From the NCBI GenBank assembly GCA_965232545.1, contig OZ246979.1:2703521-2767520 (forward strand): a DNA stretch of 64,000 nucleotides, in the 5' to 3' direction. The DNA comes from Candidatus Poribacteria bacterium. Its GTDB lineage: Bacteria > Poribacteria > WGA-4E > WGA-3G. The notes under the pieces are model-generated. The model was not told the origin of the DNA, did no database searches, and saw only the letters and a list, made by a program, of their open reading frames with translations. Shown here one piece after another: positions 10,675 through 45,270 of this stretch. Numbering within the stretch: position 1 is the first letter of the stretch; the number at the start of each line of letters is the position of its first letter. A program made the position numbers and the translations under genes.

Positions 10675-10788
10675 CAGAAAAATCCGTCATCAACTCACAA
10701 TTTCCGAAAATAAAACATTCAACTTGTCAGGTATAGATTGGCACCGGGAGCTGTTATGGCTCCCTGCTTTTTTGTCAGGATTTCCACT

Positions 10789-10823
10789 TGACAAACCGCA
10801 TCTTAAATATTACAATGCTTCTT
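10789..10823 (+). promoter_or_regulatory. Near-consensus sigma70-type promoter (TTGACA-17 bp-TACAAT) upstream of the Uma2-family gene.
   Basis: cttgacaaaccgcatcttaaatattacaatgc, read directly from the sequence. Confidence 0.4.
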
Positions 10824-10864
10824 ATCAGAAATGCGCTATAAACATCAAAAGAAGGATTAAAGAC

Positions 10865-11431
10865 ATGACACAACAAGAACTCCACGAACTCGCGCAAGGG
10901 AGTCTCGCACCGGAACAGATCTCCATGACATTGGCGGAATTTCTTGAGAACGATATAGATGGATACGAATACGTTAAAGGAGAGTTAGTGCCGATGTCTC
11001 CGCCCACGAGAATACATAGCAAGATTAGCGTCAACGTCATCCGGCATTTGGATCGGCATGTGGATGAGCATCAGTTAGGGGAGGTCCATGTAGAGGCAAC
11101 GTTTCAGGTCGATGAACGTGGACTGAAACCAGATGTGGCGTTTGTTTCAACGCCGCGGTTGGATGGAGATGAAAACATCGGATTTCCAATCCCTCCCGAT
11201 CTGGCGATTGAGGTTGTTTCGCCGTCAGACGTTCAGTGGCGTGTTGTAGACAAAGCGTTCGCTTATCTGGATGCGGGCACACGCCTCGTTTGGGTTCTGG
11301 ATCCCCGCTCTAAAACGGTGACGGTTTATCGTTCTGAAAGCGACATCGCGCTACTCACACTCGAAGCCACTCTCACAGGTGAGGATGTCGTGCCGGGATT
11401 TGCCTGTCCTGTCTCCCAACTTTTCGAGTAG
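10865..11431 (+). CDS. Uma2-family (DUF820) putative restriction-endonuclease-fold protein. The start is refined to the internal ATG.
   Basis: Typical Uma2 N-terminus (MTQQELHELAQ...LAEFLEN...YEYVKGELVPMSPP) and a PD-(D/E)xK-like core (PDVAFV...EVVSPSD). Confidence 0.65.
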   Translation: MTQQELHELAQGSLAPEQISMTLAEFLENDIDGYEYVKGELVPMSPPTRIHSKISVNVIRHLDRHVDEHQLGEVHVEATFQVDERGLKPDVAFVSTPRLDGDENIGFPIPPDLAIEVVSPSDVQWRVVDKAFAYLDAGTRLVWVLDPRSKTVTVYRSESDIALLTLEATLTGEDVVPGFACPVSQLFE

Positions 11432-14040: not shown

Positions 14041-15285
14041 CTATTCCTCTGTCTGTCCCGCGACAGCCGATGCCCGTGCTCCTACGCCAAGGACTGCTAA
14101 GAAACCTTCTGAATCGGCGTGATCGAAATCGCCAATCGCCTCCATAGACGCTGTCTCTTCAGAATAGAGCGAATGCGGTACTCCGCCTGTGGCATAGAAC
14201 GCGACGTTCCCTTTGTAGAGTGCAACTGTAACGGTACCACTCACTAAGTGAGTGATCGGTTCAATAGAAGCCAATAGTGCTCGTGTCGCCGCATCAAACC
14301 AGTACCCTTGATATATCTGTTCCGCAATCGTGACGGCTACGTCATCAAAATGTCGGCGAGCACGTCTGTCTAAAATCAGCTGCAGCAGAAACTCGTAACA
14401 CGTGCCAAGCAATTCCATTCCCGGAGATTCATAAACACCACGACTTTTAATCCCGACAAATCGGTTTTCAACGGTGTGAATGCCGATCCCGACACCATTG
14501 CGTCCACCGATATGATTTGCGTCTAATAGACTTTGAAGCGGTGTGACGGGACTCCCGTTAACCTCAACAGGTGTCCCGCGTGCAAAGGTGACCGTAAAGT
14601 GCTCCACGTCATCAGGAGCGTCTTTTGGATGGACACCCATGCCCGGGGTAATAAAACTTGCCGGAGTTTTCAGGGACTCAAGCCGTCCGGCTTCATGTGT
14701 AAGTCCCAGCAGATTCGCGTCGGTTGAGTAAGGTTTTTCGTGTGTAGCAGTAATCGGTAGGCTGTGCGCTTGGCAGAAGTCTATCATCTCTTTCCTGCCC
14801 CCGAACACTTTGAGGAAGTTCGGGTCTCGCCAGGGTGCATAGACAGCAAAGTGTGGATTGAGCATATTGGTAGCGAGTTGAAACCGCACCTGATCGTTGC
14901 CTCTACCGGTTGCGCCGTGCGTTAAGATAGCAATGCCGCGTTTTTCCATCTCTGGCAGGAGTGCTTTCACGGTGACATGTCTTGCAATGCCAGTCGTATT
15001 CCAATACCCACCTTCATACATGGCTTGACCCTGGACGAGGCGGATGCCTGCTTCCGCAAGGGCATCTTTCGCGTCGACAATAATAGCATCCTCAGCCCCG
15101 CATGCCAACATCCGTTCCTGAATTTCAGAAACGTCCTGTTCGTCAGGTTGTCCGAGGTCCGCCGTAAAACAGACGACCTTGACCCCGTTATCGACCAACC
15201 ATTTCGTGATGGTACAACTATCTAAGCCACCCGAAACAGCTGCACCAACCGTTTTTCCTTTTAATGTATCAATATTCAAAAGCAA
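14041..15285 (-). CDS. argG: Argininosuccinate synthase.
   Basis: PP-loop AVSGGLDSC, full-length 414-aa conservation, and ArgG-typical motifs such as YEGGYWNTTG. Confidence 0.9.
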   Translation of the reverse strand: MLLNIDTLKGKTVGAAVSGGLDSCTITKWLVDNGVKVVCFTADLGQPDEQDVSEIQERMLACGAEDAIIVDAKDALAEAGIRLVQGQAMYEGGYWNTTGIARHVTVKALLPEMEKRGIAILTHGATGRGNDQVRFQLATNMLNPHFAVYAPWRDPNFLKVFGGRKEMIDFCQAHSLPITATHEKPYSTDANLLGLTHEAGRLESLKTPASFITPGMGVHPKDAPDDVEHFTVTFARGTPVEVNGSPVTPLQSLLDANHIGGRNGVGIGIHTVENRFVGIKSRGVYESPGMELLGTCYEFLLQLILDRRARRHFDDVAVTIAEQIYQGYWFDAATRALLASIEPITHLVSGTVTVALYKGNVAFYATGGVPHSLYSEETASMEAIGDFDHADSEGFLAVLGVGARASAVAGQTEE

Positions 15286-15406
15286 TCTCCAAAGTATTGT
15301 GTATTAAACTATGATGGAATTATACCACTTTTTGGGGACGCTTGCAAAGCAATATTGAGACATCTAACAAAGATGTATTTGACAATTTATCGCTTTTATC
15401 TAACTT

Positions 15407-15450
15407 CGGTGTCTACATCCCAATCCTTTAGGTTTGGGATGTAGACACCG
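15407..15450. repeat. Perfect 17-bp inverted repeat (hairpin) in an AT-rich intergenic region.
   Basis: cggtgtctacatcccaa-tcctttaggt-ttgggatgtagacaccg. No flanking U-tract, so it is not a classic terminator. Confidence 0.5.
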
Positions 15451-16074
15451 CCCTCTTGGAAAGGACCAAAACGTTCATTTTTCCCTTGACATTCAGTCTA
15501 AAATGTGGTTTCATATGAGTGTATTCGGCATTGGTTGTGAGTTGTTGCACTGGTATATTGCTTGATATTCAGACAACTACGTAAAAGCCTCATACACCTC
15601 ATAAATATCTAAAATATGCTTGACATGTGTTCGGGAAATCCAAGTCATGTTGTATCCCACGAGAATGTAAAAGGTTAATAGCCTTTCATAACACATCAAA
15701 ATGTTCGTAAGGCACTTCGGTGCGGGGTTGGGATAGTGTCCCTTGTGCTTAGGCATAATAAGACTTTCGTTTTTGACATTCTCAAAACAAAAGCAATGTC
15801 GTTTGAAGCCACGAATGCTTCTGTAAAGAAAAACAACTTTGCAGAAGCCCAAGTCTTTAGGCTTGGGTCTATCACAGTATAATGGTTTCAACCGTGTGAC
15901 GTCCCTACTCCATCTGGAGCAACAGACCCGAGAAAGGGAAGGTAGCGAAATCCTTTTCCTTCACCGTCTCACAAACGGCGTTAAGTTCGCAATTTTCACA
16001 CGACTTTCTCAACTCGTTTTTTTACGGTTCCTGAAAACCCAATAACCTACGTTTTCTGATGGAGATCCCCTCAC

Positions 16075-19000
16075 ATGGAATCTGTAAAGGACATCATCCA
16101 GCAGTGCCATGAACGACGAGGAAAAGAGTTGCACCAACGGGAGACGATTGTCTCACCCACATTGCACGGTGATTACCCTTACCACTATATTGTTTATTGT
16201 GCGCGTCAGTATCCGTTGCTTTTGCATGACCTTGAACAAGCAGATATTTCGTTCATGCCGATTGGACAGGCACCGGAATTTGATCGGGGTCCAGTGTACT
16301 GTGGCGGCACTCGCTTTTTAAGACGACAAGGTACATCCAACTGGGAACCGAGACGATGGTTTTCGTCCTGGGGCATTCAGGTCTACACAGGAACGCCATC
16401 TGCGCGCGACGGCGCGAACTGGCACGACATCGAATTCACCTACAGAGCGATCCGAGACGCACCTGATGCAGTTGTTGCATGTGTGGACGCGCTCGTCAAC
16501 GCCGTTATGAATCCGCTACTCACCTTACTTAAGGGTGGAGGTTTGCGGTTTTCGTGTCGAGTGCCGGACTATCTTCATCCGAATACTATGGATGCCAAAC
16601 AGTATGTTCATAAGCATCTACCTGATACAAACCACCATCACGATCGTGATGTGTATGTTAGGATCATTGGGGATAAAGACTTTACTCGCTGGGATGCTCG
16701 CTACGAGATTCTTAAGGGCAACCTATTAGACCCGCCTATCATTTCCAAAGACGTGCTTTTTGCGTTTCTTGATGTCCTACGAGAGTTACTACATGAACCT
16801 GCCCCGACATCGGAATTAGATACGACGGATGAAGTGCTCGTGGATACACAGAATTTCGACGATTTCGGTGTCATAGAATCGTTAGAAACAGAGCACGTTG
16901 TGAATGAAAATATTCTTGCGGTACGACGCGGTGAGGTAAGTCCGATCGGAATGAAACGACCAAGACCGCTCCTTGAAAAAGTGGAACCCGATGCAGCGAC
17001 AGATGAGAGAAACTTCTCTGAAGGCGAGGAACGTATTCTTGGGCTTGTGACGGGTTCTATAAGCAGTGAAAAAAAACGTGAAATCGAAGCCACGTTTCTT
17101 GATACCGCACCTATATGGATCAACGCTAATACCCCACATGATGCCGAAGAGGCAGAACGGTATTATGAAGGATTGGGTGTTTCAGTAGCACGTTGGAAAC
17201 CGAGAAACTATCGTTGGGGGCAGGCGCAGTGGATACCGATTGCTGAACGGATGCAGAACCCCTTTGCGTATCAGAACCTCTGCGAAGATGCCAAAAGATG
17301 TGATGCATTGGAACAGAAGGGCGGTGACCCAAATAAAAGTATCTGCCCGAGTTGTCCCGTTTATGACGCGTGTCAAGAACGCGGGTATCTTTCTCAATTC
17401 GAGACGCTCAAGGAGAAGCAGGTCATTGTATCAGAAATTCCGAATCCCTTTCTGGATCGACGGTATGCGGCGTTTGTAGATGCGTTGATTGTTCCCAACC
17501 GGACCTGTATCATGAATGATTCCGAATCCCAACTCACGAAACTCTTTTCAAAGTATCATCTGTCCTCCGAAATCCTTGAAGGCTGGCTCATTAATTGGAG
17601 TGGTGCGGTGTTGGGTCAATTCGCGAAAACAATGCTGAACGCTATTCGAATTACAGACAGTCAACATGGTGATATCGCTAAGCGAATTCGCACTGTTGTT
17701 CAAGCGTTTGAAGGGTTAGAAAATAGCATTGTTCAGCAGATGAGCCAGGTCACTTGTACAGATAAAGAGGGTAGCAGGATTGCAACAGATACTGATAGTG
17801 CGATCCAGTCTGGGATGTTGGATATATCGACCCCAGAAAACATAGCGAAGATTCCAAATGTGTACCGCGACCCGGAGTGGACGTTATGGCATCAGTTGAA
17901 GACATTTTTTGCGTGTTACACGCGCGATATCGATGCGCCGATGTTTGTCGATGACGGGATTTTGCGGTTCTGGTTACCACCAAGGATTCATCAAACAATT
18001 CAGAAGCTTGTGTTCATATCGCCAGCATTCTCAGAAGATTATTTCAAAGAAGCGTTTCCTGAAAAGACTGTTTCGGTGAGGCGGGTTGAATCGCAAAAAA
18101 CATCGCTTTCAGGGAATCAGGCTTTTCAGTTGCGGAGTGCGCCGCATATCTCCTATGCAATCGCAAACTATGAGGTTAATTGGGACGTGTTTAGCCTTTC
18201 TGAAATTGCGAGTCGATTTTTTCGCGGCATCCATCAAGAAATGAAGCGGCATCCAGATCGCAATCATGTCGTTATCTCGAGCACAAGCACAATGGTGATG
18301 CTGAAAAATGTTTTTGATAACATTATTAGCTACCACAACCTCATCAAAGACACCCCGGCACACTCTGAGGATTTGCGATCCACTTTTGAAACTGCTGACG
18401 TTTACGACAACCGCATCAACGCTCTACGATCCATCTTTGAGGCTGCTGATGTTGTCTGGATCGTTGGCACACCCTATTGGCCCCCACAATTCATCTGGGA
18501 ACAAGCGAAAATACTGTTTGGAAACCAAGCGGAGCCATTAAATTATAACTTGACAATGAACCCTTATCAATTTGAAGATGAACGGATACAGGAACTCTAC
18601 GAACAGAATGCTGTAGGCACCCTGACACAAATTATCCATATCGCTGGATTCAATGAAGTATCAGATAAAACGTTGATTCTCAATACAGCTTTGCGGATAC
18701 CCACTGTCACCGAGGCACCAGAGACGGAATTGTTCGATTGGGAAGACTTTGAAATCGCTGACGAATTGGATGAACTTCCAGAGACGATTCGGATACGCGA
18801 GGGGTATGAGGCTGAATACGCGGACATAGATGCCTCTTGGTGTCGAGAACGCGTTGAATATTTGCTCGGAGTTTCTAAGTCGCAAGCGAATCGTATCCTG
18901 ATGAGGGTGAGGGGCAGTAAAATCGAGCGGATTCCATTTCACGTGCAGATTTTTGAACTGCTCTTGGATGGGGAGAAAACAACATCTGAAATCCTTGAAT

Positions 19001-19101
19001 CAATTCAGGGGAATCCGGGTTCCATTAAAAACGAACTCACCCATCTTGTGGAAACGGGCGAGATCGTGAGGGTCCGGCGCGGTGTGTACGCCTTGGTATA
19101 G
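16075..19101 (+). CDS. Large (1008 aa) uncharacterised protein. It has a Cys cluster (CPSCPVYDAC), a C-terminal winged-helix-like tail, and an N-terminal region with weak primase-polymerase-like features.
   Basis: Long uninterrupted ORF with balanced composition. N-terminal motifs GIQVYTGTP...NWHDIEF...GGLRFSCRV loosely resemble Prim-Pol/AEP signatures. The C-terminal ...ETGEIVRVRRGVYALV is wHTH-like. No Walker A motif was found. Confidence 0.65.
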   Translation: MESVKDIIQQCHERRGKELHQRETIVSPTLHGDYPYHYIVYCARQYPLLLHDLEQADISFMPIGQAPEFDRGPVYCGGTRFLRRQGTSNWEPRRWFSSWGIQVYTGTPSARDGANWHDIEFTYRAIRDAPDAVVACVDALVNAVMNPLLTLLKGGGLRFSCRVPDYLHPNTMDAKQYVHKHLPDTNHHHDRDVYVRIIGDKDFTRWDARYEILKGNLLDPPIISKDVLFAFLDVLRELLHEPAPTSELDTTDEVLVDTQNFDDFGVIESLETEHVVNENILAVRRGEVSPIGMKRPRPLLEKVEPDAATDERNFSEGEERILGLVTGSISSEKKREIEATFLDTAPIWINANTPHDAEEAERYYEGLGVSVARWKPRNYRWGQAQWIPIAERMQNPFAYQNLCEDAKRCDALEQKGGDPNKSICPSCPVYDACQERGYLSQFETLKEKQVIVSEIPNPFLDRRYAAFVDALIVPNRTCIMNDSESQLTKLFSKYHLSSEILEGWLINWSGAVLGQFAKTMLNAIRITDSQHGDIAKRIRTVVQAFEGLENSIVQQMSQVTCTDKEGSRIATDTDSAIQSGMLDISTPENIAKIPNVYRDPEWTLWHQLKTFFACYTRDIDAPMFVDDGILRFWLPPRIHQTIQKLVFISPAFSEDYFKEAFPEKTVSVRRVESQKTSLSGNQAFQLRSAPHISYAIANYEVNWDVFSLSEIASRFFRGIHQEMKRHPDRNHVVISSTSTMVMLKNVFDNIISYHNLIKDTPAHSEDLRSTFETADVYDNRINALRSIFEAADVVWIVGTPYWPPQFIWEQAKILFGNQAEPLNYNLTMNPYQFEDERIQELYEQNAVGTLTQIIHIAGFNEVSDKTLILNTALRIPTVTEAPETELFDWEDFEIADELDELPETIRIREGYEAEYADIDASWCRERVEYLLGVSKSQANRILMRVRGSKIERIPFHVQIFELLLDGEKTTSEILESIQGNPGSIKNELTHLVETGEIVRVRRGVYALV

Positions 19102-19179
19102 TCGGGAACTCTCCTTTTTTTAACCCATCCGAGTGAATATACCTTCATACAACCAAACAACACACAGAGCACACCTACT

Positions 19180-21810
19180 CTAATAAACATCCGCTATTGT
19201 CTCATTCACCGTCGCACGCCATGAGTCTTCAAATAGCATGCGGAAAGACATCGTATTGTTATTAGGCGCGGTGATATTCATCGTACCATGTTGTGTGGCG
19301 TTTCGATATGCTGTTTCTAATGTTTCAATAAGTTTCTGTTTATAGGTGGTATCACTATTACCTTCAAGGTGTTGCCCTTTGGCTTCAAAGATGCAAAGCC
19401 TCTGTGGACCCGTTTGACTCCGCTGAAGACAGGCAACAAAATCGGGGTAGACGCGGTCGCGTCGCCACCCTTGTAAGAAATACCCTTGCTTCGCGGCAAT
19501 GCGGTGCCACCATTGGATTGCGTTCTGTTTGTCCAAGTAGAGCGCGAAATCTGTTTCCAGATTATTAAATTCTGCTTCAAATACTTTTTCAAAAAGGTTC
19601 TGTTGTAACAGATCGCCGTGCGGATGTGTCATCGGTTTTGCTTCAGGCGTAAGGCTGACCACAAGCGTTTTTTCCATCTCATAGTTTAACGCATCATCTG
19701 CTTGGAGGTTAAACTGGATTTCTCCGGCTTCCAACTTTTCTCTGAATACGATCTCAGCGCGTTTATCAACGCGACTGTGCAAACGATGTTTCAGGTACTC
19801 CGAAAGGTATAAACGGTGTGTATACAACGTTTCTTCGTCAACACCTTCTTCACGGTAGGCAGCAAGCGTTGCTTTCACGATGCGTGCGGCGTGCCAGGGA
19901 TTCGGCAGCACATCGCCGAGTCGCCGAACGAAAAACGCTACCTCCAAGTTGTGTGCCGCACTCGCTTGCAACTTTTTATCAATTACCGCTTCGTCTTGGA
20001 GGTGAATAGTGGCACGGATCTCCTGAAGTTGTGCCGCCTCGCCTAAATTGATAGGTGCCACCGGACCGAGTTGATGCCAGTCAATTGCGTTGAGAATGTC
20101 ACGTTCGTAATTGAGTTCTCGCCAGTTTCGTCCTTGTTTATGAAGGACACGCGGTAGAAAAATGTCTACATTACGGTATCCGTGTTTACGTCCAATAGTT
20201 CGTTGAACACGCTCTACACCTGTCCCTTCAACAAAGTCGCCTAATCCTGTTAACCCTTCTGCCTCTAATCCTTTCTTGACATTGGCGACTGCCGATTTGA
20301 CTTTCTGATTGTAACAGAAGATATAACAACTATCCAGTTCTGGATGGTTCGTGACACGGGCGTAGGGTTGGCGCATCACTCTCCCGATGAGCTGCGTCAT
20401 CGCCGTCGCCGCCGTGGTGTTGTCAAGAAGGGCAAGGAGATAAGCAAACGGGCAATCCCATCCCTCCTTCAAGGCATCTTTCGTGATGATATAGCGGACA
20501 GGGCAGAACGGACTCATGAGGTCTATTCCTGCGAGTTCATCTTGCTCCGACGATTTTACCTTGATCTGTTCCATTGGTACACCCAATGCATCAATGAGTT
20601 CTTCGCGAGCATCCTCGGCGTGGACCTTCACACCGTCGCGCTGGTTTTTGCCGGTGCGATCCACACGAATCACGGCGATGGGACGGATATAGCGATCTTT
20701 CGTTTGCTGAAATCGTTTTGCTACCTCTTCAAGTCTATCGCGTTCTTCCTTCGTCTGCGCAAGCGTATATCTCCAATCCGAATTCGGAAAATTTCGGAGT
20801 TGAATCGGGAGTTTTATCATCTCTTCTTCTTTGAGTGCAAGACCGGAGACATTGACGAGGATATTGCTGATGCCGAGTTTCGGCGTGGCGGAGAGTTCCA
20901 AGACAAAACGAGGATTGAGCCGATTTACCGATTCCACAAAGCCTTTATTGCGAACCATGTCAGGACTTCCGTAAGCCTTGTGCGCTTCATCTAAAATCAC
21001 AGTTGGGCGGAGTAGTTTCAGGACGTTAAAAAGGCTCTGTTTGATGAGCGTGTCTTTGGGGTTTCTGGCAAGCCGAGGTTGTGCAGCCTCATCATCTCCT
21101 GCCGTTTCAAGGTCGGGATGTTTTTCTGAGAGTGCTTGATGCTCCCGCATGTCATCCTCAACCGGAAAAAACGATGCATAGCCGCTACTATCACGGAAAA
21201 TCTTGAGGAATTCCTTGTTTCGGTTCCGATTCGCGGCGGGCAGCATGAGGAGCATCACACAGAGATGGTTCTCAATATCCTGCTTTGTAAATCTATCGTC
21301 TTTTTGGAGCAGTTTGACGCGCCCTCCGGAAGCACGCTCCAGAGTTTGTCGATACGGATGCTCTTTATTGCGAAAAGCGTCCCACGTTTGCGTATAGATG
21401 GCTTTGGTTGGCACCAGCCAGAGCACAAATCCAGTGCCGAGTTTCAAGTGACGCACCGCCTCCACACCTAACAGGGTCTTCCCGCCACCTGTCGGGACCT
21501 TCAGACAGACATGCGGAATCGGTTCACCAGAGGTACTCTCACGCGGAATGTGTTCTGGAATTAGGTTCTGTCCTTGCGCATCTGTAACGCCCGGTAACAC
21601 TGCGGCTTTTCGTAAACTTTCCCATGCTTGATGTGGATAATTCTCTACATCTCTGGTGACTGCAAGAGCAGTCTCACCCAAAGTCTCCGAAATCTCTTTT
21701 GATGATAATAGGTCCGCCCATTCATCGGCTTTCTGGCGCGCCTCCTTGAGTGCCTCCAGATAGCGGTCCAATGTATCTAATGCCTGTTGTTGATAGTCTT
21801 TGAGTTCCAT
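19180..21810 (-). CDS. res: Type III restriction enzyme Res subunit (SF2 helicase plus PD-(D/E)xK endonuclease).
   Basis: Helicase motif I KVPTGGGKT and motif II ILDEAHKAY (DEAH). C-terminal nuclease motif VYPDFVACL...FEAKG. 876 aa. Lies downstream of mod on the same strand. Confidence 0.85.
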   Translation of the reverse strand: MELKDYQQQALDTLDRYLEALKEARQKADEWADLLSSKEISETLGETALAVTRDVENYPHQAWESLRKAAVLPGVTDAQGQNLIPEHIPRESTSGEPIPHVCLKVPTGGGKTLLGVEAVRHLKLGTGFVLWLVPTKAIYTQTWDAFRNKEHPYRQTLERASGGRVKLLQKDDRFTKQDIENHLCVMLLMLPAANRNRNKEFLKIFRDSSGYASFFPVEDDMREHQALSEKHPDLETAGDDEAAQPRLARNPKDTLIKQSLFNVLKLLRPTVILDEAHKAYGSPDMVRNKGFVESVNRLNPRFVLELSATPKLGISNILVNVSGLALKEEEMIKLPIQLRNFPNSDWRYTLAQTKEERDRLEEVAKRFQQTKDRYIRPIAVIRVDRTGKNQRDGVKVHAEDAREELIDALGVPMEQIKVKSSEQDELAGIDLMSPFCPVRYIITKDALKEGWDCPFAYLLALLDNTTAATAMTQLIGRVMRQPYARVTNHPELDSCYIFCYNQKVKSAVANVKKGLEAEGLTGLGDFVEGTGVERVQRTIGRKHGYRNVDIFLPRVLHKQGRNWRELNYERDILNAIDWHQLGPVAPINLGEAAQLQEIRATIHLQDEAVIDKKLQASAAHNLEVAFFVRRLGDVLPNPWHAARIVKATLAAYREEGVDEETLYTHRLYLSEYLKHRLHSRVDKRAEIVFREKLEAGEIQFNLQADDALNYEMEKTLVVSLTPEAKPMTHPHGDLLQQNLFEKVFEAEFNNLETDFALYLDKQNAIQWWHRIAAKQGYFLQGWRRDRVYPDFVACLQRSQTGPQRLCIFEAKGQHLEGNSDTTYKQKLIETLETAYRNATQHGTMNITAPNNNTMSFRMLFEDSWRATVNETIADVY

Positions 21811-21878
21811 TTCATAAGCCTCCAGACCCGGTAGGTGGGCTGTTTTTGATAGGGTGTTTTCCTCCTAACCACCCCGCT

Positions 21879-22094
21879 TCATAGCGTGATTATAATTTCT
21901 TCAAAAGACTCACCCTCTGTTCGGCGAATTGCCTCTTTGCGATTGTATTCTATCGTTTCGCGAAGCGTGACTTGCAGCGTTTCAAGTAATTCGTCCTTAG
22001 TCCGTTCTTGACCATTCACACCGGGAATTTCTTGTATCCAACCGATCCACCAACCTTCGTCTCGTTGGATGACAGCAGTATAGGTTTGGACCAT
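21879..22094 (-). CDS. HicB-like (UPF0150) antitoxin-family protein, apparently an orphan.
   Basis: 71-aa protein MVQTYTAVIQRDEGWWIGWIQEIPGVNG... matches the HicB N-terminal RNase-H-like fold pattern. No hicA is detectable nearby. A degenerate REP copy lies immediately upstream (22116-22170). Confidence 0.5.
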   Translation of the reverse strand: MVQTYTAVIQRDEGWWIGWIQEIPGVNGQERTKDELLETLQVTLRETIEYNRKEAIRRTEGESFEEIIITL

Positions 22095-22254
22095 CCGTTC
22101 TGTGCTCCTTACGTGCGATAAATCGCACTACTACGAACAGCCTGCTTGTAGTAGGACAATTCATTGCCCGTCAATTACCGAGTTATTTTCTGAAACTTCA
22201 TTTAGATTATGCCTGCAAGGACGCAAACTGGAAGTTTACGCTACGAAACCACTC

Positions 22255-23898
22255 TCACATATCCGCAATACGATGGATGTTATAGGGCAACTGGCAGAAA
22301 GTGATCCCCATGTCTGTCAACTCCTTCTGACTGATGAATTTTTGAGGCGCATAGACATAAGCCTTTTTACCTGTTTCCTTGCACGCTTTGGCGATCTGCT
22401 CGGCACGCGCTCCATCTAACGCGGATTTATTGCTCTCCAAAAATTCCAATGTCGGTTCATAGATGAGATAGAAACGGAAGGCATCGGTTTCACCAAAACA
22501 GTAATCTTCCTGCTCTGCGATGGAAGTTAGCGCATTGCCCGTGGCAGTATAAGCGATATAGTCGGCTAAAGCCTCGTAGGTAGGAAGTGTTTCACCGGTG
22601 AGCATGCCTTCCTCGTCAATCGGTTCGCCGAGCGTGCAGTAGGTGAAGGAACCGCCAAGCCCCTCTCGCAGTGTCTCATCTTTGGCATTTTCAATGCCGT
22701 TGATGACGCGTCGGACGCGTTCAGCGGTAATAGTATCGGCATAGTCTTCACATTCCATGAGGATAAACTTTCGGTTACCACCATCTTCCTTATTGAGTGC
22801 GAGGACAGCGTGGGCAGTAGTCCCGGTGCCAGCAAAAGAGTCAAGAATCAGTGAATCAGAAGTTGTTGACAGTAAAACAAGCCTTTTGATTAAATCAAGA
22901 GGCTTGCTAGTATCTAAAACTTTTTCGCCAAAGATCGCTTTCTGTTCATTAGTAGCATCAGTCGTTGTTGCCAAGTCGTAATAGATAGTCCGTTCCTTGA
23001 CCACCTTATCTTTATTTCTCATTTCATCAAAATAGATAACTTCGTAGGGAGTCCAACGTTCCTTTCTCTTTTCCCAATGGATATGATCTTGGTCCAAAAC
23101 CGTTGGGCGTGTTCGCCAATTTCCATCTCTCCCATCTGGGGCTCTTGGGAAAAAATCAGTTCCGTCTGGTGCCTGGATTGAATAAAACATCGTTGGTCTG
23201 TCTTCTCGATAGGCATTAGATCCCCATTTTTCCAATTTTAAAAATTTACACTTCCGGCCGTTTTTGACTTTAGGAAATTCAGACTCAGTTCTTAGTGAAG
23301 TCCTGAATTTGATAGTGTAGACATCACTTTTCCGATAGCACAAAATATACTCATGTTCACGTGCATAGTATTCAGTGTCCTGTCCGCCTCCCGCTTTTTT
23401 TCGCCAGATAAGGTTCGCCACAAAATTCTCTTCACCAAAAACCTCATCCATTAGCAAACGTAAATTGTGTACTTCATTATCATCAATAGAGACAAAAATT
23501 ACGCCATCATCGGACAGCAATTCATGCAATAAATGGAGTCGAGGCCACATCATACATAACCACTTATCATGACGTTCTAAGTCTTCATTATCAATCGGAC
23601 TATGTTTCTCCAGCCACGTTTGCATCATCGGGCTGTTAACATTGTCATTATAGACCCAACCTTCGTTGCCGGTATTATACGGAGGATCAATGTAGATACA
23701 CTTGATTTTGTCAGCGTATTTTGGGAGAAGTGCTTTCAGGGCGTGTAGGTTGTCACTGTGAATGATGAGATTATCATTTAAGGATGGATCGTTGTCGCCA
23801 GTCAGGGATTTATCTGCATCTATTTGCAGGGTGCGGATGGGAAGGGTAAGGTGGTGTCCGTATATAAATTGTTTACCTTTGAAATCGAGTGAGGGCAT
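22255..23898 (-). CDS. mod: Type III restriction-modification Mod subunit (N6-adenine DNA methyltransferase, beta class).
   Basis: Catalytic motif IV IYIDPPYNTG. A downstream AdoMet motif (DSFAGTGTT) gives beta-class order. 547 aa. Lies immediately upstream of res. Confidence 0.85.
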   Translation of the reverse strand: MPSLDFKGKQFIYGHHLTLPIRTLQIDADKSLTGDNDPSLNDNLIIHSDNLHALKALLPKYADKIKCIYIDPPYNTGNEGWVYNDNVNSPMMQTWLEKHSPIDNEDLERHDKWLCMMWPRLHLLHELLSDDGVIFVSIDDNEVHNLRLLMDEVFGEENFVANLIWRKKAGGGQDTEYYAREHEYILCYRKSDVYTIKFRTSLRTESEFPKVKNGRKCKFLKLEKWGSNAYREDRPTMFYSIQAPDGTDFFPRAPDGRDGNWRTRPTVLDQDHIHWEKRKERWTPYEVIYFDEMRNKDKVVKERTIYYDLATTTDATNEQKAIFGEKVLDTSKPLDLIKRLVLLSTTSDSLILDSFAGTGTTAHAVLALNKEDGGNRKFILMECEDYADTITAERVRRVINGIENAKDETLREGLGGSFTYCTLGEPIDEEGMLTGETLPTYEALADYIAYTATGNALTSIAEQEDYCFGETDAFRFYLIYEPTLEFLESNKSALDGARAEQIAKACKETGKKAYVYAPQKFISQKELTDMGITFCQLPYNIHRIADM

Positions 23899-24076
23899 AG
23901 GGATTCCTCAAAAAAACCTCATATTATTGCGAAACATATCAAAAATATGCATAATTATAGCATAAAAACGTATAAAAATACATAAAAATACATAAAAACG
24001 CATATAATAACATTATATTCGGTTAAAATTCTCTCAATAGATATGCTGTGATTAACAAAAAAGGAAGGTACAGAGC

Positions 24077-24289
24077 ATGGACAGAATAACTTTTAATCCA
24101 GAACAGTGTGGTGGACACCCCTGCATTCGAGGGATGCGGATTCGGGTAACAGATGTCTTAGATTTGCTGGCTGCTGGACTCTCTTTTCAAGAAATTCTTG
24201 ACGAAATGCCATTGCTGGAATACGAAGACATTGTTGCTTGTCTCCAATTCGCCTCACGAAAAATTAACCATCCTGTAGTTGACGCATGA
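24077..24289 (+). CDS. DUF433 domain protein (antitoxin-like partner of DUF5615 nucleases).
   Basis: 70 aa with the GKPCIRGTRI-like core (GGHPCIRGMRIRVTDVLDLLAAG). Followed by a truncated DUF5615-like start. Confidence 0.6.
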   Translation: MDRITFNPEQCGGHPCIRGMRIRVTDVLDLLAAGLSFQEILDEMPLLEYEDIVACLQFASRKINHPVVDA

Positions 24290-24324
24290 AGTTTTGGATC
24301 GATCAAAATACGCCTGTATCTTAG
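24286..24324 (+). pseudogene. Truncated remnant of a DUF5615 (Mut7-C-like) toxin gene, cut off by the REP array.
   Basis: Overlapping ATGA start/stop with the DUF433 gene. It encodes MKFWIDQNTPVS*, matching the canonical DUF5615 N-terminus MKFL.DENL.P, then stops where the first REP begins. Confidence 0.3.
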
Positions 24325-24333
24325 AAAAAACGT

Positions 24334-24686
24334 GGTTCGTAGTAGCGCAATTCATTGCGCTTTGTGGAAGGTAGATGTGTAGTTGACGCGGTTCATCAAC
24401 AATCTCCGGACCGGTTACGCAAGACGAGAACATTAGTCGAGTTTTAAAGGTCAGTTATTTTAAGTTCGTCGTAAGGAGACCCTTTATCACCTGTGTTACA
24501 GCGCAATGAATTGCGCTACTACGAACAGGAGAAGATGCGAATATGTACCGCTATGAAGGCAACTTCGTCAGCGTGCTAAAGCGCAATGAATTGCGCTACT
24601 ACGAACAGGAAGAGATTGGAATATGTACCGCCATGAAAGCAACTTATTCATCGTGCTAAAGCGCAATAAATTGCGCTACTACGAAC
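24334..24686. repeat. REP (repetitive extragenic palindrome) cluster 5' of the RAYT gene. It has one inverted-orientation REP (24334-24360) and three direct REPs (24501-24526, 24581-24606, 24661-24686) inside an 80-bp tandemly triplicated unit.
   Basis: Imperfect palindrome GCGCAATGAATTGCGC followed by TACTACGAAC. The 80-bp units also repeat the RBS and the first codons (ATGTACCGCTAT) of the transposase. Confidence 0.75.
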
Positions 24687-24702
24687 AGGAAGAGATTGGA
24701 AT

Positions 24703-25311
24703 ATGTACCGCTATCGGGGACTAACACCTGAAGAGAAAACTGAAATCCTGCAGCAGCGACAATCGCATGGTTTCCCACCGCACGCACCACCGCACCTACA
24801 CGATACCGAAGGTTGGTTTTTGATTACTACCGCCACTTATGAACATAAGCGGTACTTCCAGACCAACGAAGAACGAACATGGATACTGGGCGAGTTGCGA
24901 AAAGAACTCCAAATCCCCAACATCTCAATTGGCGGCTGGGTTGTATTATCAAATCATTATCATCTATTGATTAAGTGTCAACCGCTTTCGGTTATCAGTC
25001 AGCCCTTACGTCGGGTTCATGCCCGCACGGCACGTGAATTGAATCGTCGTGACGAACTATCTGGACGGCAAGTTTGGTATCGTTTCAGTGATCGACAGAT
25101 TCGCAGTGAAAGACATTATTACACAACCCTGAACTATATCCACTACAATCCGACAAAGCATAACTACGTGCAAAAACCAAAGGATTGGACCTGTTCAAGT
25201 TTACATTGGTATGAAAAACATTTCGGGATTGAATGGCTGCGGGATCTCTGGCGAACGTATCCTGTACGGGATTATGGAAAAGGATGGGATTGGCAAAATT
25301 CAGGTTCGTAG
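24703..25311 (+). CDS. REP-associated tyrosine transposase (RAYT, IS200/IS605-like HUH Y1 transposase).
   Basis: HUH motif LSNHYHLLIK and a downstream catalytic Tyr region (TTLNYIHYNP). 202 aa. Flanked on both sides by REPs. Confidence 0.8.
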   Translation: MYRYRGLTPEEKTEILQQRQSHGFPPHAPPHLHDTEGWFLITTATYEHKRYFQTNEERTWILGELRKELQIPNISIGGWVVLSNHYHLLIKCQPLSVISQPLRRVHARTARELNRRDELSGRQVWYRFSDRQIRSERHYYTTLNYIHYNPTKHNYVQKPKDWTCSSLHWYEKHFGIEWLRDLWRTYPVRDYGKGWDWQNSGS

Positions 25312-25551
25312 TAAGGCGATTCATCGCCTTGTGGTGAGGAAACCGTCCACATGAATATCTAATCCTGTTTTAAAAGCCTTAAAGATTTACAAATCAAATA
25401 ATGGCAAGACTGAAGACTTGATGAGTTTATATAAGGCTATTTGCAATGGTTTAAAAATTTCCTATGATGAGTCATTTTTTAACAACCCATTTATACCACA
25501 GATGCAAAATAATACCATTTCTGCATAACCGTTTTTCATTAGCAAAAAACC

Positions 25552-25715
25552 GGTTCGCAGTAGCGCAATGAATTGCACCAGGGACATTCGGAAACCTCAT
25601 AGCGTTTCAAAATCTCTGAAATGCGAATTTATCAGGACTTACGCAAAATTGGCTTTCATGCCAAAATTGAGGGGATATTCCCGAAGAAAGCGCAATGAAT
25701 TGCGCTACTACGAAC
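25552..25715. repeat. Two REP copies 3' of the RAYT gene (25552-25576 and 25690-25715).
   Basis: ggttcgcagtagcgcaatgaattgc and gcgcaatgaattgcgctactacgaacc are the same palindrome family as the upstream cluster. Confidence 0.65.
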
Positions 25716-25752
25716 CAAAGACCGCACGAAAACGGGTCAACTGCGTAAGTCC

Positions 25753-26621
25753 TAGGTTGTGTTTACATTTTGTGAGTGGTTACGAGTATTGCTGCGAAAT
25801 AGACGAATCCGAGGTACCGAACACTTAATTTATCGTAGCGCGTCGCGACCCGACGATACTGTTTCAACCACCCAAAGAAACGCTCTATCAAGTTGCGGCG
25901 TTTATACAATTCTTTATCATACTCACGGGGTTCCGTCCGCCCTTTGCGAGGCGGGATCACCGCAATCGCAGCCTCAGACGTGATCTCTGCTATAAACGCA
26001 TCCGAGTCGTAAGCTTTATCACCTATGACATATTCATAGGAATACCCTTCAATTAGCGCAGGAGCTTGTGTAATATCATTGCGGTGTCCCGCTATCAAAA
26101 TAAAACGCAACGGGATACAGGCATCGCTGAGAGACAGATTCAGTTTCGTCGTAAATCCGCCTCGCGTTCGTCCGAGTGCCTGTGCCTCTTGTCCTCCTTT
26201 TTTTTCGGGGCCCCTGCTGCCGAGGCATGTGCCCGCACGATCGTCGAATCAATGAGGATCCCTGAGATGTCGCCAGCATCATGAAACTGTTCATGGAGTG
26301 CTTGAAAAACACCCACATCGCACCATCTACTGAATCGACGATAGATCGCATTCCAATTACCATAGACCTTCGGTAAAGCGCGCCACGTCGCGCCTTCTTT
26401 TGCGATCCAAAGCACAGCAGAGAGAAAGTGCCTGCACGTTTCTGGGTTTCCAACATAGACGTTTCGGCAGTCTTTGAGGAACGGTAAGATGCTATTCCAA
26501 GCAGCATCACTCAACTGCACTGGCAGTTCTTGGGAGTCAACGGCATTTTGAGTTTCCATAAAAAAAGGATACTAAAATCTCTACCAAATGTCAATACCTT
26601 TTCAAATGTAAACACAACCTA
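25753..26621 (-). mobile_element. IS5-family insertion sequence (IS427/IS1031-like group), about 870 bp, with terminal inverted repeats and a probable TA target duplication.
   Basis: IRL (c)taGGTTGTGTTTACATTT at about 25753-25770. IRR is the reverse complement of AAATGTAAACACAACCta at about 26604-26621. It contains two overlapping transposase ORFs. Confidence 0.8.
25763..26559 (-). CDS. IS5-family DDE transposase OrfAB, expressed via a -1 programmed frameshift at an A8G slippery run.
   Basis: OrfA (26140-26559) is N-terminal HTH-like. OrfB (25763-26110) carries DDE-region motifs (VIGDKAYDSD ... ERFFGWLKQYRRVATRYDK). The slippery CCG AAA AAA AAG is on the minus strand at about 26199-26206. 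Confidence 0.75.
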
Positions 26622-26733
26622 CGGATTATAGCATTAATTTGATGGCATTGCCAATAAAAAACGCGTGAACGATAGGATATTCAGGGCGTACCTCTAACTG
26701 ACAACCTAAAACTGAATGACTTGGGAAAACATT

Positions 26734-26762
26734 GACAAGCCCTCTCAAAGACGCTATAATTG
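26734..26762 (+). promoter_or_regulatory. Consensus sigma70-type promoter (TTGACA-17-TATAAT) upstream of the second DUF433 gene.
   Basis: ttgacaagccctctcaaagacgctataat. Confidence 0.45.
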
Positions 26763-26803
26763 TGAAGAAGATTGACATGATTTCTATATTGGAGGGAATA
26801 TAC

Positions 26804-27022
26804 ATGGCAATTCGTTGGAGAGACCACATTGTTAGCACACCTGATATATTGCGCGGTAAACCGCGCATCAAAGGGACAAGAATTCCGGTAAGCCTTCTCC
26901 TCGGATACTTGGCAGCAGGGCATACAACAGACGAAATCATAACTGAATTCCCAGATCTCAAAGCGATGCAAATTCACGCCTGCCTTGATTACGCGCGTGA
27001 ATTAGAAGATTCCAATCAATAA
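26804..27022 (+). CDS. DUF433 domain protein (second copy). The start is refined to the internal ATG (MAIRWRDH...).
   Basis: LRGKPRIKGTRIPVSLLLGYLAAGHTTDEIITEFPDL matches the DUF433 core. No DUF5615 partner lies downstream. Confidence 0.6.
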   Translation: MAIRWRDHIVSTPDILRGKPRIKGTRIPVSLLLGYLAAGHTTDEIITEFPDLKAMQIHACLDYARELEDSNQ

Positions 27023-27041
27023 ATCCCGCCAAAAAATCCTT

Positions 27042-27076
27042 GACATCCTTCCCGAAACTGTATACAATGCAACCCC
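27042..27076 (+). promoter_or_regulatory. Near-consensus promoter (TTGACA-17-TACAAT) upstream of the beta-propeller protein gene.
   Basis: ttgacatccttcccgaaactgtatacaat. Confidence 0.4.
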
Positions 27077-27107
27077 AAGCAATGTACGTTTTATACGGAG
27101 GTTTCTC

Positions 27108-43230: not shown

Positions 43231-43776
43231 TTAAGCCTGCTCTACGTGCATTTCCGTGTTTTCTACACGTGTTAACCTGTATCCTAATATTGCACCGATA
43301 GGAACAGCAAGAATGTACCAGATTTCGACTGGCAAACCGAGGTATACCCATCCACGCATCGGTAATGAGATAATATACGCAAGTGTTTTAAGAACGGGAA
43401 GGAGCAATGCCAAGATTAGATTTGGTCTGCCAAATATTTCCCACGGAACGTTAAGCAGTGCCAGCAAACCGACGACAGCAGGGGGTCCCAAAAATGCCCC
43501 CGAACAAAGTGGTTTTAGCGGAATATCGGTGCCAAATTTTTGACTCACAAAACGGATCCCCGTGCTTGCCCCTACAATCACAACCCCGTATGTGACACTC
43601 AGTGAGATAAGGAGAAATAAACCGACCCAGAAGCCGTGGTCGACTCGATTCCCAAGTAGTAACTGCCAAATAAGTTTCTCAAATATCAGCAGGCAAATCC
43701 AGCCACCTACCAGCCCGACGATACTCCCCGCAACAATTTGCCCAAATGTTAATGTAATATTATTTTTCGTTTCCAT
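43231..43776 (-). CDS. Polytopic membrane protein, possibly an ECF-transporter S-component-like protein.
   Basis: Five or six predicted TM helices in 181 aa. No soluble domain. Confidence 0.35.
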   Translation of the reverse strand: METKNNITLTFGQIVAGSIVGLVGGWICLLIFEKLIWQLLLGNRVDHGFWVGLFLLISLSVTYGVVIVGASTGIRFVSQKFGTDIPLKPLCSGAFLGPPAVVGLLALLNVPWEIFGRPNLILALLLPVLKTLAYIISLPMRGWVYLGLPVEIWYILAVPIGAILGYRLTRVENTEMHVEQA

Positions 43777-43846
43777 GCGCTCCCGACTTTCTATTTAAAA
43801 TCTTAACTCTATTGTATCACGATGCAACATTATTGTCAAAGTTATC

Positions 43847-44530
43847 TCATCTATTTTCTGTAGGGTCATTTAGGCCTTCTGTTGGAGGGAATTCCGATAG
43901 GGACGTTTCAATCCATCGCGCCCCAAGTTGAAAAAGTGAATCGTTTGCTGGTGTTTCAAAGGTAAAAACGGGTTTGCCCCACGCCAACACTATCTGCGCA
44001 AATTCCAAAATCTTACTATCCTCTGCAGCGTGGGCAATACAGATTTTGTCCGCAAGTGCCGCAACAAAGAGGTTGCGTTGGTGCGCCAATGCCGCTGTCG
44101 ATCGCTGATGGCGACTCCCAAAAATAGATAGGATTAATAGACGCTTTTCAGATAACGCATCCTTCCACGCCGATTTCAGTCTCATCTTTTCGATGCTCCG
44201 TGCCGGACTTATGAGAATCGGCTGTGAGCCACGCAGTAAAACGCGTAGGCACTCCTGCTCAACTGGAGAGTGATACCCGCCTATCGTTGGGATACCTGCT
44301 TCTCTAAATTCTTGTGCCAAGTCATGCGCTTTCAGGATAATCTCTCCCGGGCATTTACTGGAGCAGAAAAGTGCCCAGAGGTCTCCGTTCAAGGTGGCGT
44401 TTTGCCCAGGTAACAGGTCAACACTCCCGCGTGCCCAGATCGTTTCGGGTGTCTCCGTTTTTAAATACTGCCTCAATCCTGTTGGATAATTCGTGTCTTT
44501 TTGTGTGATGTGTTGGATTGCCTGCGTCAC
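43847..44530 (-). CDS. Rossmann-fold nucleotide-binding protein of the DprA/Smf/SLOG-like family.
   Basis: Pattern IGGYHSPVEQECLRVLLRG...ILISPA resembles the DprA/SLOG core. This is a weak assignment. Confidence 0.3.
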   Translation of the reverse strand: MTQAIQHITQKDTNYPTGLRQYLKTETPETIWARGSVDLLPGQNATLNGDLWALFCSSKCPGEIILKAHDLAQEFREAGIPTIGGYHSPVEQECLRVLLRGSQPILISPARSIEKMRLKSAWKDALSEKRLLILSIFGSRHQRSTAALAHQRNLFVAALADKICIAHAAEDSKILEFAQIVLAWGKPVFTFETPANDSLFQLGARWIETSLSEFPPTEGLNDPTENR

Positions 44531-44591
44531 TTACTGTTAGTATCCTTCATGTAGGTCCTACTGCTTACGTTCGCGTAGTTAATCACGCAAT

Positions 44592-44650
44592 TAATCGCTT
44601 ACCTAATCGCTTACCTAATCGTTTACCTAATCGTTTACCTTTTGTACGTA
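44592..44650. repeat. Tandem 12-bp repeat (TAATCGYTTACC) of 4-5 copies.
   Basis: aattaatcgcttacctaatcgcttacctaatcgtttacctaatcgtttacc, read directly. A related motif recurs at about 47852-47897. Confidence 0.7.
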
Positions 44651-44886
44651 CTTAGTCCCTCGTCCCTTGCCTACTACATGTAATAATCCTTTATTTGTTA
44701 GATCTTTTAGTTCCTCATAGGCGATTCGGACTGAGACATGATTAATCTCTATGTATTCCTTTCTTCGGTGGTGGCGTTTTCGCCTTGTGCAATGCGTTGT
44801 TTGATAACAGCGGTTTCCATAGTTTTTTAGGGTCCGACAATGCGGTCTTGCCTATACGCTTCCATTTCCTTTTGCAGTGTTTCGAT

Positions 44887-45255: not shown

Positions 45256-45270
45256 TTTCGTCTCCTTTAC

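Follow-up and report, generated by a model that had tools for sequence, protein, structure and literature searches.

What is a 1008-amino-acid (aa) protein that is encoded between argG and a Type III restriction-modification (R-M) system, and does it belong with the mobile and defence genes beside it? The gene in question lies in a stretch of 64,000 nucleotides from a Candidatus Poribacteria bacterium (contig OZ246979.1, positions 2,703,521 to 2,767,520; hereafter, the window). An earlier note on this DNA had described a long, clean open reading frame (ORF) for an orphan protein, which might either replicate or maintain a degraded integrative element or be an uncharacterised defence protein. 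The ORF was recovered as claimed. We consider it fairly probable that the gene descends, by vertical inheritance and exaptation, from the replicative primase-helicase of a mobile element, and that its product binds DNA without acting as a motor and still uses its archaeo-eukaryotic primase (AEP) site. The gene and its immediate neighbours are as follows.

16075..19101, + strand: complete ORF of 1008 aa with an ATG start; domain order AEP/Prim-Pol, short linker, XPD/DinG-like fold with a 4-Cys site, helix-turn-helix (HTH) and winged helix-turn-helix (wHTH)
14041-15285, - strand: argG (TIGR00032, 366 bits), divergent from the 1008-aa gene on its upstream side
19180..21810, - strand: Type III res (PADLOC REase_III, 771 bits), convergent with the 1008-aa gene and 78 bp from it
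22255..23898, - strand: Type III mod, the methylase (PADLOC, 567 bits)

The curated libraries searched (Pfam, NCBIfam, PADLOC, PHROGs and PDB sequences) gave almost no match to the 1008-aa protein, the exception being a sub-threshold match to AbiEi_4. For the N-terminal region, neither Pfam nor NCBIfam matched aa 1-280 of the window protein or the same N-terminus in distant members of its family, and a search of the N-terminal profile against PDB sequences returned nothing. We therefore turn to predicted folds and motif alignment, on which both enzyme-like domain assignments rest. In a first AlphaFold2 (AF2) run, which used a shallow 29-sequence alignment, aa 1-276 were left unmodelled. A second run on the domain only, with a 42-sequence alignment of N-terminal homologs reaching down to 18% identity, gave a model of aa 1-245 with a predicted local distance difference test score (pLDDT) of 90.4 and a predicted template modelling score (pTM) of 0.85. 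When this model was compared with the PDB using Foldseek, the top nine matches were all AEPs (among them NrS-1, LigD-Pol and CAPP, a CRISPR-associated Prim-Pol), with weak E values of ~1e-2; the best fold match was the phage NrS-1 primase-polymerase (N300), at a probability of 0.93-0.95. Likewise, comparison with BFVD, a database of predicted viral structures, gave 26 matches at E<=1e-3, the best at E 4e-8 to 1e-5, with template modelling (TM) scores of 0.44-0.57 (0.54-0.57 for those at E 4e-8) and root-mean-square deviations of 3.6-5 Å. Nearly all of these are labelled 'DNA primase/polymerase, bifunctional, N-terminal'. The Prim-Pol resemblance proposed in the earlier note, for which Foldseek had been suggested as a check, is thus upheld by a confident fold and by AEP matches in both structure sets.

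16075..16809, + strand: AEP/Prim-Pol fold domain, aa 1-245
16420..16440, + strand: equivalent of AEP motif I, W116-H-D118-I-E120-F-T122 (DxE), aligned to TDLDFEY, SDIDIE and MDVDIE in distant members
16531..16554, + strand: equivalent of AEP motif II, K-G-G-G-L-R158-F-S, with Arg for the canonical His, aligned with KSGGxR(F/L)S
16687..16704, + strand: candidate AEP motif III, R-W-D207-A-R-Y, assigned by order and alignment

The strings GIQVYTG, WHDIEF and GGLRFSC, which had been picked out as loosely AEP-like, align with the DxD/DxDxE and SGGxH motifs of distant homologs. D118 and E120 are present in all of the ~24 orthologs, D207 is invariant in the alignment, and R158 and D207 occur in every domain-bearing ORF of the ~100 paralog ORFs examined. 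Motif II carries Arg in 41 of 42 diverse sequences, the single His being found in the protein P0161 (SGGQHFYF). This family-wide substitution is therefore an old feature and not a sign of decay. Further indication of what occupies the N-terminus comes from relatives with the same helicase and wHTH: at least nine clusters of these carry, as their N-terminus, an AEP that Pfam recognises (BT4734-like_N plus PriCT_2; in P0180, E 1.4e-21 and E 1.8e-12, respectively). Such relatives, together with the distant members that have a C-H-C-C motif after their AEP domain, support regarding the N-terminus as a primase slot. Taken together, the predicted fold, motif I and the candidate motif III support the assignment of aa 1-245 to a divergent domain of the AEP superfamily; the motif II His and curated models do not contribute to it.

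The AEP domain is followed by a segment that differs between the window clade and its distant relatives.

16810..16974, + strand: short acidic linker, aa 246-300, replacing an ancestral CHC2 primase zinc finger

This linker spans 56 aa in the window protein, versus ~100-130 aa in distant members, ~27 of 43 of which have a C-H-C-C (CHC2) motif between the AEP and the helicase. In the window clade the segment is deleted. Such a finger is described as essential for stabilising the initiating nucleotide during priming in the paper on IEE (PMC9943667), which cites Martinez-Jimenez et al. 2018, so de novo priming should be lost from a protein without it. We also observed two short segments that are conserved across the family, distant clades included, and look like interaction motifs. 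One, SP(L/I)x(I/M)KRPxPxL, forms the end of the linker just before the helicase fold (16936-16974, aa 288-300); the other, ETxLFDWEDFE, follows the helicase fold (18721-18753, aa 883-893), with F887 conserved at 94% and D891 at 96%.

The middle of the protein, which the earlier note had left unexplained apart from its cysteines, has the predicted fold of an XPD/DinG-like superfamily 2 (SF2) helicase.

16975..18834, + strand: XPD/Rad3/DinG-like SF2 helicase fold, aa ~301-920, predicted to be catalytically dead; assigned by Foldseek and motif order

In the AF2 model from the 29-sequence alignment, residues 280-1008 are mostly at pLDDT 70-90. The fold of aa 280-950 matched XPD best among PDB structures (9p55, E 4.6e-12; 2vsf, E 7.6e-11, target TM 0.53), followed by CasDinG (8e2w, E 8.7e-9) and then, more weakly, by UvrB and SecA. 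The order of elements along the chain, namely motif I, a Cys4 insertion, motif II, an insertion of ~165 aa, motif III and a second RecA domain, is the XPD/DinG layout. The ~165-aa insertion (aa 483-648, between motifs II and III) is mostly helical and, judged by position, stands at the place of the Arch domain. Sequence searches found no match to Pfam DEAD_2 or Helicase_C_2 or to the PDB sequences of XPD or DinG; distant members gave marginal ResIII/DEAD matches only, and the family profile matched among PDB sequences only marginal SF2 proteins (Prp43, DHX36 and UvrB) and small HTH proteins. Given how divergent the sequence profile is, 'XPD-like' speaks of fold and topology.

We then compared the motifs of this fold, and its cysteines, in a full-length alignment of 189 family members and the window protein (190 sequences). 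Distant clades keep canonical SF2 motifs: TGxGK in motif I, DE or DD in motif II, SAT in motif III and QAxGRxxR in motif VI. The window clade does not.

17056..17076, + strand: degenerate motif I (Walker A), S-I-S-S-E-K-K; (A/D)TGxGK(N/S/T) in distant members, S-(I/M)-S-(S/T)-E-K-K in the clade
17506..17520, + strand: degenerate motif II (Walker B), C-I-M-N-D; hhhDE/hhhDD in distant members, (I/M/V/T)-N-D in the clade
18628..18648, + strand: degenerate motif VI, Q-I-I-H-I-A-G, with both arginines lost; QAxGRxxR in distant members, QIxHIxG in the clade, with Q-(R/H)-I-G at the four signature positions

At position 481, within motif II, 96% of distant members have Asp and the window protein has Asn, while motif III reads SAT in distant clades versus S-P-A in the window clade. 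These dead states are uniform across the window protein and its ~24 orthologs (73-93% identity), and the motifs are likewise degenerate in the next tier of relatives, at 59-62% identity. The absence of Walker motifs noticed earlier is therefore a demonstrable loss of Walker A and Walker B relative to homologs. Having lost the glycines of motif I, the Asp of motif II, SAT and the arginines of motif VI, the protein would not be expected to hydrolyse ATP for translocation, and we infer from its sequence that it is no longer able to translocate, unwind DNA or prime de novo. An earlier suggestion that the N-terminal enzyme could be inactive is reasonable in so far as the finger is deleted, motif II has Arg and all ATPase motifs are gone; the acidic residues of the AEP are kept.

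The cysteines of the insertion, in contrast to the ATPase motifs, have been retained.

17260..17409, + strand: 4-Cys metal-binding insertion at the position of the XPD Fe-S domain, with C403, C424, C427 and C433 and the clade-specific C409

Each of the four family-wide cysteines is conserved at 97-98% in the full-length alignment, distant clades included, and the string CPSCPVYDAC that had been flagged as a Cys cluster supplies three of them. In the parent family the site probably holds a 4Fe-4S cluster, a likelihood to be read with the fact that sequence does not discriminate between Fe-S and zinc.

The protein ends in a tail that had been proposed to be a winged helix, and a weak AbiEi_4 match together with the modelled layout bears this out.

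18835..19101, + strand: HTH (aa ~925-945) and AbiEi_4-like winged helix (aa ~955-1008), from a sub-threshold Pfam match and the model

Pfam PF13338 (AbiEi_4) matches aa 988-1008 at E 1.2e-4 and 22.6 bits, against a cut-off of 25, and the same match is precomputed for several orthologs and recorded for distant members too. In the model, the tail runs helix-helix-helix-strand-strand (H955-963, H970-976, H981-993, E997-1001, E1004-1007). Such a tail raises the question of whether the protein is mainly a transcription factor, in which an AbiEi-like wHTH regulates neighbouring genes and the remainder serves as a sensor or oligomerisation scaffold. The wHTH is well conserved (see below), the gene is divergent from argG across a conserved intergenic region, and one source labels a homolog 'AbiEi family antitoxin domain-containing'. 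However, ~900 aa of further constrained sequence, with invariant AEP residues and a metal site, would be excessive for a repressor; moreover, the neighbours of paralogs are unrelated and the Pfam score falls under its cut-off. We regard this explanation as rather unlikely.

Given that every ATPase motif is lost, and that some paralogs are split or truncated, it could be argued that the gene is a decaying pseudogene or, alternatively, that it encodes an active helicase with non-canonical motifs. We compared the window gene pairwise with 22 orthologs and obtained a median ratio of nonsynonymous to synonymous substitution rates (dN/dS) of 0.17. By region, the ratio is 0.11 for the AEP domain, 0.13 for the wHTH, 0.20 for the helicase-like parts and 0.30 for the linker; the flanking argG, MoxR and sulfatase genes have values of 0.03-0.04. 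The reading frame, of 1003-1010 aa, is intact across dozens of species. An intact frame, identical dead motifs and a dN/dS of 0.17 indicate a constrained, functional pseudo-helicase and not a pseudogene, and the AEP acidic residues D118, E120 and D207, together with R158, the four cysteines and the wHTH, remain under purifying selection. As for an active helicase, residual ATPase activity is made improbable by the joint loss of the glycines of motif I, the Asp of motif II, SAT and the two arginines of motif VI. We thus give these two possibilities very little credence, and decay is directly contradicted by the dN/dS. As a separate observation, the median dS of the 1008-aa gene is 0.54, about half of the 1.05-1.17 of argG, MoxR and sulfatase in the same genome pairs (loci L007-L031); nucleotide-level constraint, gene conversion and a method artefact are candidate causes.

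The position of the gene in other genomes bears on whether it belongs with its mobile neighbours. An ortholog occupies the same slot beside argG in 21 GTDB species representatives in addition to the window. The order of the locus is GATase-like, (Uma2), sulfatase, MoxR, argG (-), the 1008-aa gene (+), a variable gap, Vgb-lyase-like, lipoate ligase and FGE-sulfatase, and the gap ranges from ~0.4 kb (L012, L026 and L027) to ~8 kb in the window. The bracketed gene encodes a Uma2-family putative endonuclease (10724-11431, between the GATase-like and sulfatase genes), which is missing in L001/L007, L006/L022, L028 and L029 and present in most others.

This arrangement allows a role in the adjacent Type III R-M system, or in another known defence system, to be weighed. 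The gene is convergent with res, as the earlier note had stated, and only 78 bp from it, and in the genome of the 93%-identical ortholog TIR genes occupy the same island, all of which might suggest an accessory or regulator. Type III res/mod genes are nonetheless present in only five of the 22 syntenic loci (the window, L001/L007, L008, L009 and L023); in the 17 others the gene persists unchanged without them. Adjacency to the R-M system is therefore incidental, the res/mod genes being cargo of a variable island, and the link implied by the earlier note does not hold. In addition, paralogs stand in unrelated contexts, and PADLOC gives weak AbiEi-like wHTH matches only. A role as an R-M accessory is contradicted by this pattern of co-occurrence, and we think it highly improbable.

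The same evidence bears on the reading of the earlier note, in which the gene would replicate or maintain a degraded integrative element resident at this locus. The domain logic is that of an element-encoded replication protein (Rep), and insertion sequence (IS) fragments, a transposase and the R-M genes are close by. Yet 21 other species have the gene at this fixed position, with argG on one side and the Vgb-lyase-like gene on the other, while the adjoining mobile genes vary, so that homologs are found in the core, syntenic setting that the earlier note had itself held to be incompatible with its proposal. A compositional deviation of 15.3-27 kb, which the earlier note had proposed to look for, was not seen either (tetranucleotide z -0.6 to +0.5; GC content at third codon positions, of the gene as well as of this region, ordinary for the window). 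Furthermore, we found no integrase and no att-like repeat at the locus, and purifying selection acts on a protein whose motifs are stably dead. Synteny thus contradicts a resident element, and we consider this reading very doubtful. Co-localisation of homologs with R-M systems or integrases had also been put forward for checking; integrases do stand beside distant relatives, and R-M genes accompany only those five of the argG-type loci.

We next consider the family as a whole, which is far from the orphan it had been called. A homology search returned at least 1,272 homologs of the 1008-aa protein at E<=1e-3, and an exhaustive profile search recovered representatives of 593 clusters formed at 50% identity, of which 247 score E<=1e-30. 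Every named homolog belongs to Candidatus Poribacteria, which are uncultured sponge symbionts, and in a scan of GTDB species genomes the best 80 of 296 encoding stretches are all from Poribacteria. An ORF-level census of the fetched loci, in which complete chromosomes proved multi-copy, indicates that Poribacteria genomes carry at least 4-6 paralogs each; the window itself holds a single copy. Paralogs occur at other chromosomal sites with neighbours unrelated to those of the argG locus, and tandem arrays of 2-4 are present in L003, L050, L053 and L063. Within Poribacteria, paralog groups span motif-intact members (ETGAGK(N/S/T), IDE, SST, xGRG), degenerate members, members split into AEP and helicase ORFs, and truncated ones. 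The loci of the unusual groups, with split ORFs or shortened tandem members, are L034-L037, L044, L075, L076 and L079. One group is split at the same point into adjacent ORFs in at least eight genomes (AEP, ~450-476 aa; helicase, ~653-670 aa), and another, of 726-816 aa and arranged in tandem arrays, is without the region from Walker A to Cys4.

Distant, motif-intact members of the family reside on mobile DNA. P0161 can be aligned with the window protein over its whole length (BLASTP E 5e-61) and has the canonical motif II His, intact helicase motifs and a CHC2 finger; two small ORFs and an integrase precede its gene, and another integrase flanks it. The gene for P0300 is downstream of an integrase, on an island with a CD-NTase/patatin pair, and the genome that encodes P0308 is phage-like, its other products including an S24 repressor, a large terminase, RuvC and a methylase. 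Other distant members lie among integrases, transposase fragments, ParA, HicB, DUF932 and a small terminase. Motif-intact relatives on mobile DNA suggest that temperate phages and integrative elements were the first users of the family, as their replicative primase-helicase, and we infer that this ancestor was captured and expanded in Poribacteria. In this respect the idea of a mobile-element origin in the earlier note was well founded. We also noted that elements with motif-intact relatives carry defence cargo, namely CD-NTase and patatin of CBASS type (L086, 5673-8425) and a ThsB-type TIR protein (L081, 7146-7703).

Derivation from a mobile-element replicase is likewise compatible with a role in immunity, in which a motor-dead copy would act as a decoy: a dominant-negative Rep whose wHTH and helicase-like surface still engage origins, or partners in the replisome, of related phages and integrative elements, and which so forms a stand-alone defence. 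DNA-binding parts have been kept and motors lost, several paralogs have lost motifs in a mosaic fashion in genomes with many IS elements and defence genes, and the gene abuts an insertion hot spot. On the other hand, the orthologs are conserved (77-93% identity, dN/dS 0.17), unlike genes engaged in an arms race, which usually evolve fast, and a decoy would leave unexplained why the active-site residues of the AEP are the most constrained. PADLOC assigned the protein to no defence family, returning the AbiEi wHTH alone (E 0.006-0.01 over ~25 aa), and the suggestion of an uncharacterised defence protein consequently stands unsupported. We judge a decoy function to be unlikely, if less so than a mainly regulatory one.

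Several observations weigh against descent from an element replicase with a working AEP site. Both the AEP and the XPD-like domains go unrecognised by sequence profiles of Pfam, NCBIfam and the PDB. The full-length model is of moderate quality (pLDDT 64.7), and its Foldseek TM to XPD is ~0.5. Motif II has Arg instead of His, and an hhalign comparison of the N-terminal profile with a BT4734-type member gave no match (probability 0.1%). Conservation of the catalytic-looking residues might be structural. Mobile-element ancestry is supported by seven metagenomic contigs only, no relative was found among annotated plasmids, annotated phages or IMG/VR viral contigs, and no conserved partner gene points to a cellular role.

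Comparison with known proteins places the family near, and apart from, several described systems. Like pRN1 ORF904 (Prim-Pol, SF3 helicase and winged helix) and NrS-1, it combines an AEP, a Zn-binding element, a helicase and a C-terminal winged helix, and its relatives are found beside integrases or in phage-like genomes. Unlike them, its helicase is SF2, XPD/DinG-like and equipped with four cysteines, not SF3, D5 or DnaB, and its motif II has Arg; the window copy, moreover, is chromosomal, fixed and without helicase motifs or a Zn finger. With XPD, Rad3, DinG, YoaA and CasDinG the family shares the fold (E 5e-12 to 1e-8), and the placing of four conserved cysteines ahead of motif II, and a large insertion follows motif II at the candidate Arch position, but it has no detectable sequence-profile similarity to them, is fused to an AEP and a wHTH, and in the window protein is without every ATPase motif. 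The distant members resemble human PrimPol and herpesvirus UL52 in having C-H-C-C directly after the AEP (the 'UL52-type' CHC2 finger), a likeness of motif arrangement with no sequence relationship established; in the window clade this finger is deleted. Human PrimPol has DxE in its motif I, as does the window protein. The N-terminal wHTH of AbiEi antitoxins (PF13338) is the only Pfam family that touches the 1008-aa protein, and here too there are differences: the score is sub-threshold, no AbiEii toxin partner is present, and the domain forms the C-terminus of a protein as long as 1008 aa.

The closest functional analogy may be E. coli IEE, an AEP polymerase whose SF2 domain stabilises its DNA complex and end synapsis without unwinding. 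As a functional analog only, IEE is similar in pairing an AEP with an SF2 domain, in lacking a primase Zn finger and in occurring in IS-rich genomes; unlike the window protein, it keeps its ATPase motifs and activity, has a RadD-like helicase that is free of a Cys cluster, and carries no wHTH. A second precedent is XPD itself, for which PMC4182028 describes a structural, helicase-independent role in transcription initiation. A survey of AEPs (PMC5862659) lists as helicase partners SF1, SF3, MCM and 'remote SF2' (UL9-like) only, with no XPD, DinG or Rad3, and our literature searches for an AEP with XPD/DinG, or for Poribacteria with a primase and helicase, found nothing relevant. Thus, Reps that join an AEP, a helicase and a winged helix are known (pRN1 ORF904, NrS-1 and the families of PMC5862659), and a family that joins an AEP, an Fe-S-type SF2 helicase and a wHTH appears to be undescribed in the literature searched.

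On the reading that we favour, that of an exapted primase-helicase, the parent family comprises an AEP/Prim-Pol domain, a CHC2 finger, an XPD/DinG-type SF2 helicase with a 4-Cys insertion, and an HTH and wHTH. In phage-like or integrase-bearing elements the parent protein presumably finds an origin through its wHTH, unwinds it and primes. In the lineage of the window, motifs I, II, III and VI were destroyed and the finger deleted long ago, and stably so. What is left may be a static platform that binds DNA by sequence or structure, made of the HTH, the wHTH and a helicase-like scaffold for binding single-stranded DNA, that positions the AEP active site. That site could serve in template-dependent extension, end processing or nucleotide binding, possibly in cooperation with motor-competent paralogs, and its function would be independent of the neighbouring Type III R-M system.

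The remaining features of the locus concern DNA around the gene. Upstream of it lies an ORF-poor region of 790 bp with a GC content of 0.43, in agreement with the earlier description of an AT-rich stretch, and the perfect 17-bp hairpin reported there is also present. The region is made up of a part conserved by argG (15286-15399), an insertion and a part conserved by the 1008-aa gene.

15400..15875, no strand assigned: 476-bp non-autonomous insertion of IS200/IS605 type, with hairpins at both ends (15407-15450 on the left, a smaller one at ~15845-15870 on the right)
15407-15450, no strand assigned: left hairpin, with 21-nt arms, 95% complementary, 17 bp perfect; single-copy in the window
15876..16074, + strand: conserved 5' region, presumed promoter and leader, 74-91% identical among orthologous loci and contiguous with 15286-15399 where the insertion is missing

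The insertion is missing from the locus of the closest (93%) ortholog, being absent in L007, where the two conserved blocks are contiguous. Its left end shares 86% identity with L001 21416-21507, a segment immediately preceding a TnpB (OrfB_IS605) gene; in L001, too, such a hairpin occurs, followed by a TTGACA...TATAAT promoter. The window has no TnpB, and since the insertion contains no transposase it is classed as non-autonomous. A 104-aa ORF within it (15577-15891, - strand) has no Pfam match. The insertion and its hairpin are unrelated to the 1008-aa gene. Two other identities of the hairpin were discarded: that of a repetitive extragenic palindromic (REP) element of the nearby REP-associated tyrosine transposase (RAYT), because the window contains only one copy and this copy has its homolog at the end of a TnpB element, and that of a terminator or operator of the gene, because the locus of the closest ortholog lacks all 476 bp. 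A promoter and terminator scan did no better than shuffles, and Rfam gave no match over 15.0-27.5 kb.

Downstream, the res and mod genes belong to the variable island.

19102-27107, no strand assigned: variable island between the 1008-aa gene and the conserved Vgb-lyase-like gene, holding res/mod, RAYT, IS4/IS5 and DUF433
24703-25311, no strand assigned: RAYT
25763-26559, - strand: split IS4/IS5 transposase
26732-27022, no strand assigned: DUF433 gene

In other Poribacteria the same slot holds TnpB, RAYT, TIR or other genes, or nearly nothing; because its cargo differs in this way, the slot is an insertion hot spot. Elsewhere in the window, 43500-49900 is the strongest compositional outlier (tetranucleotide z up to 2.8; GC 0.385-0.42) and may be a second defence or mobile island. 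It contains the following genes.

43847-44530, - strand: DprA-like protein
46188-47684, - strand: TPR and Schlafen/AlbA_2 protein
48700-49884, - strand: Eco57I-type methylase

For the annotation of the locus, these results mean that the Type III R-M neighbour and the hairpin should be read as unrelated mobile cargo. More broadly, plasmids, phages and integrative elements typically replicate by means of a fused AEP primase and helicase, and the locus displays what may become of such an engine once captured: fixation in the core genome, expansion to at least 4-6 copies, and stable loss of motor and finger. It would also provide a natural example of a pseudo-helicase in which a polymerase-type site, a metal cluster and a DNA-binding tail are still selected, and the presence of motor-intact and motor-dead paralogs in the same genomes offers a comparison through which the role of an Fe-S helicase scaffold without ATP hydrolysis might be approached. 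We put forward, tentatively and as a possibility that is on balance doubtful, that Poribacteria have domesticated a phage or element replicase of a new type into a multi-paralog system with a division of labour between motor-competent and motor-dead members, in which the argG-linked copy would have become fixed in a DNA-transaction pathway, either repair or priming at DNA structures or the exclusion of elements at the hot spot.

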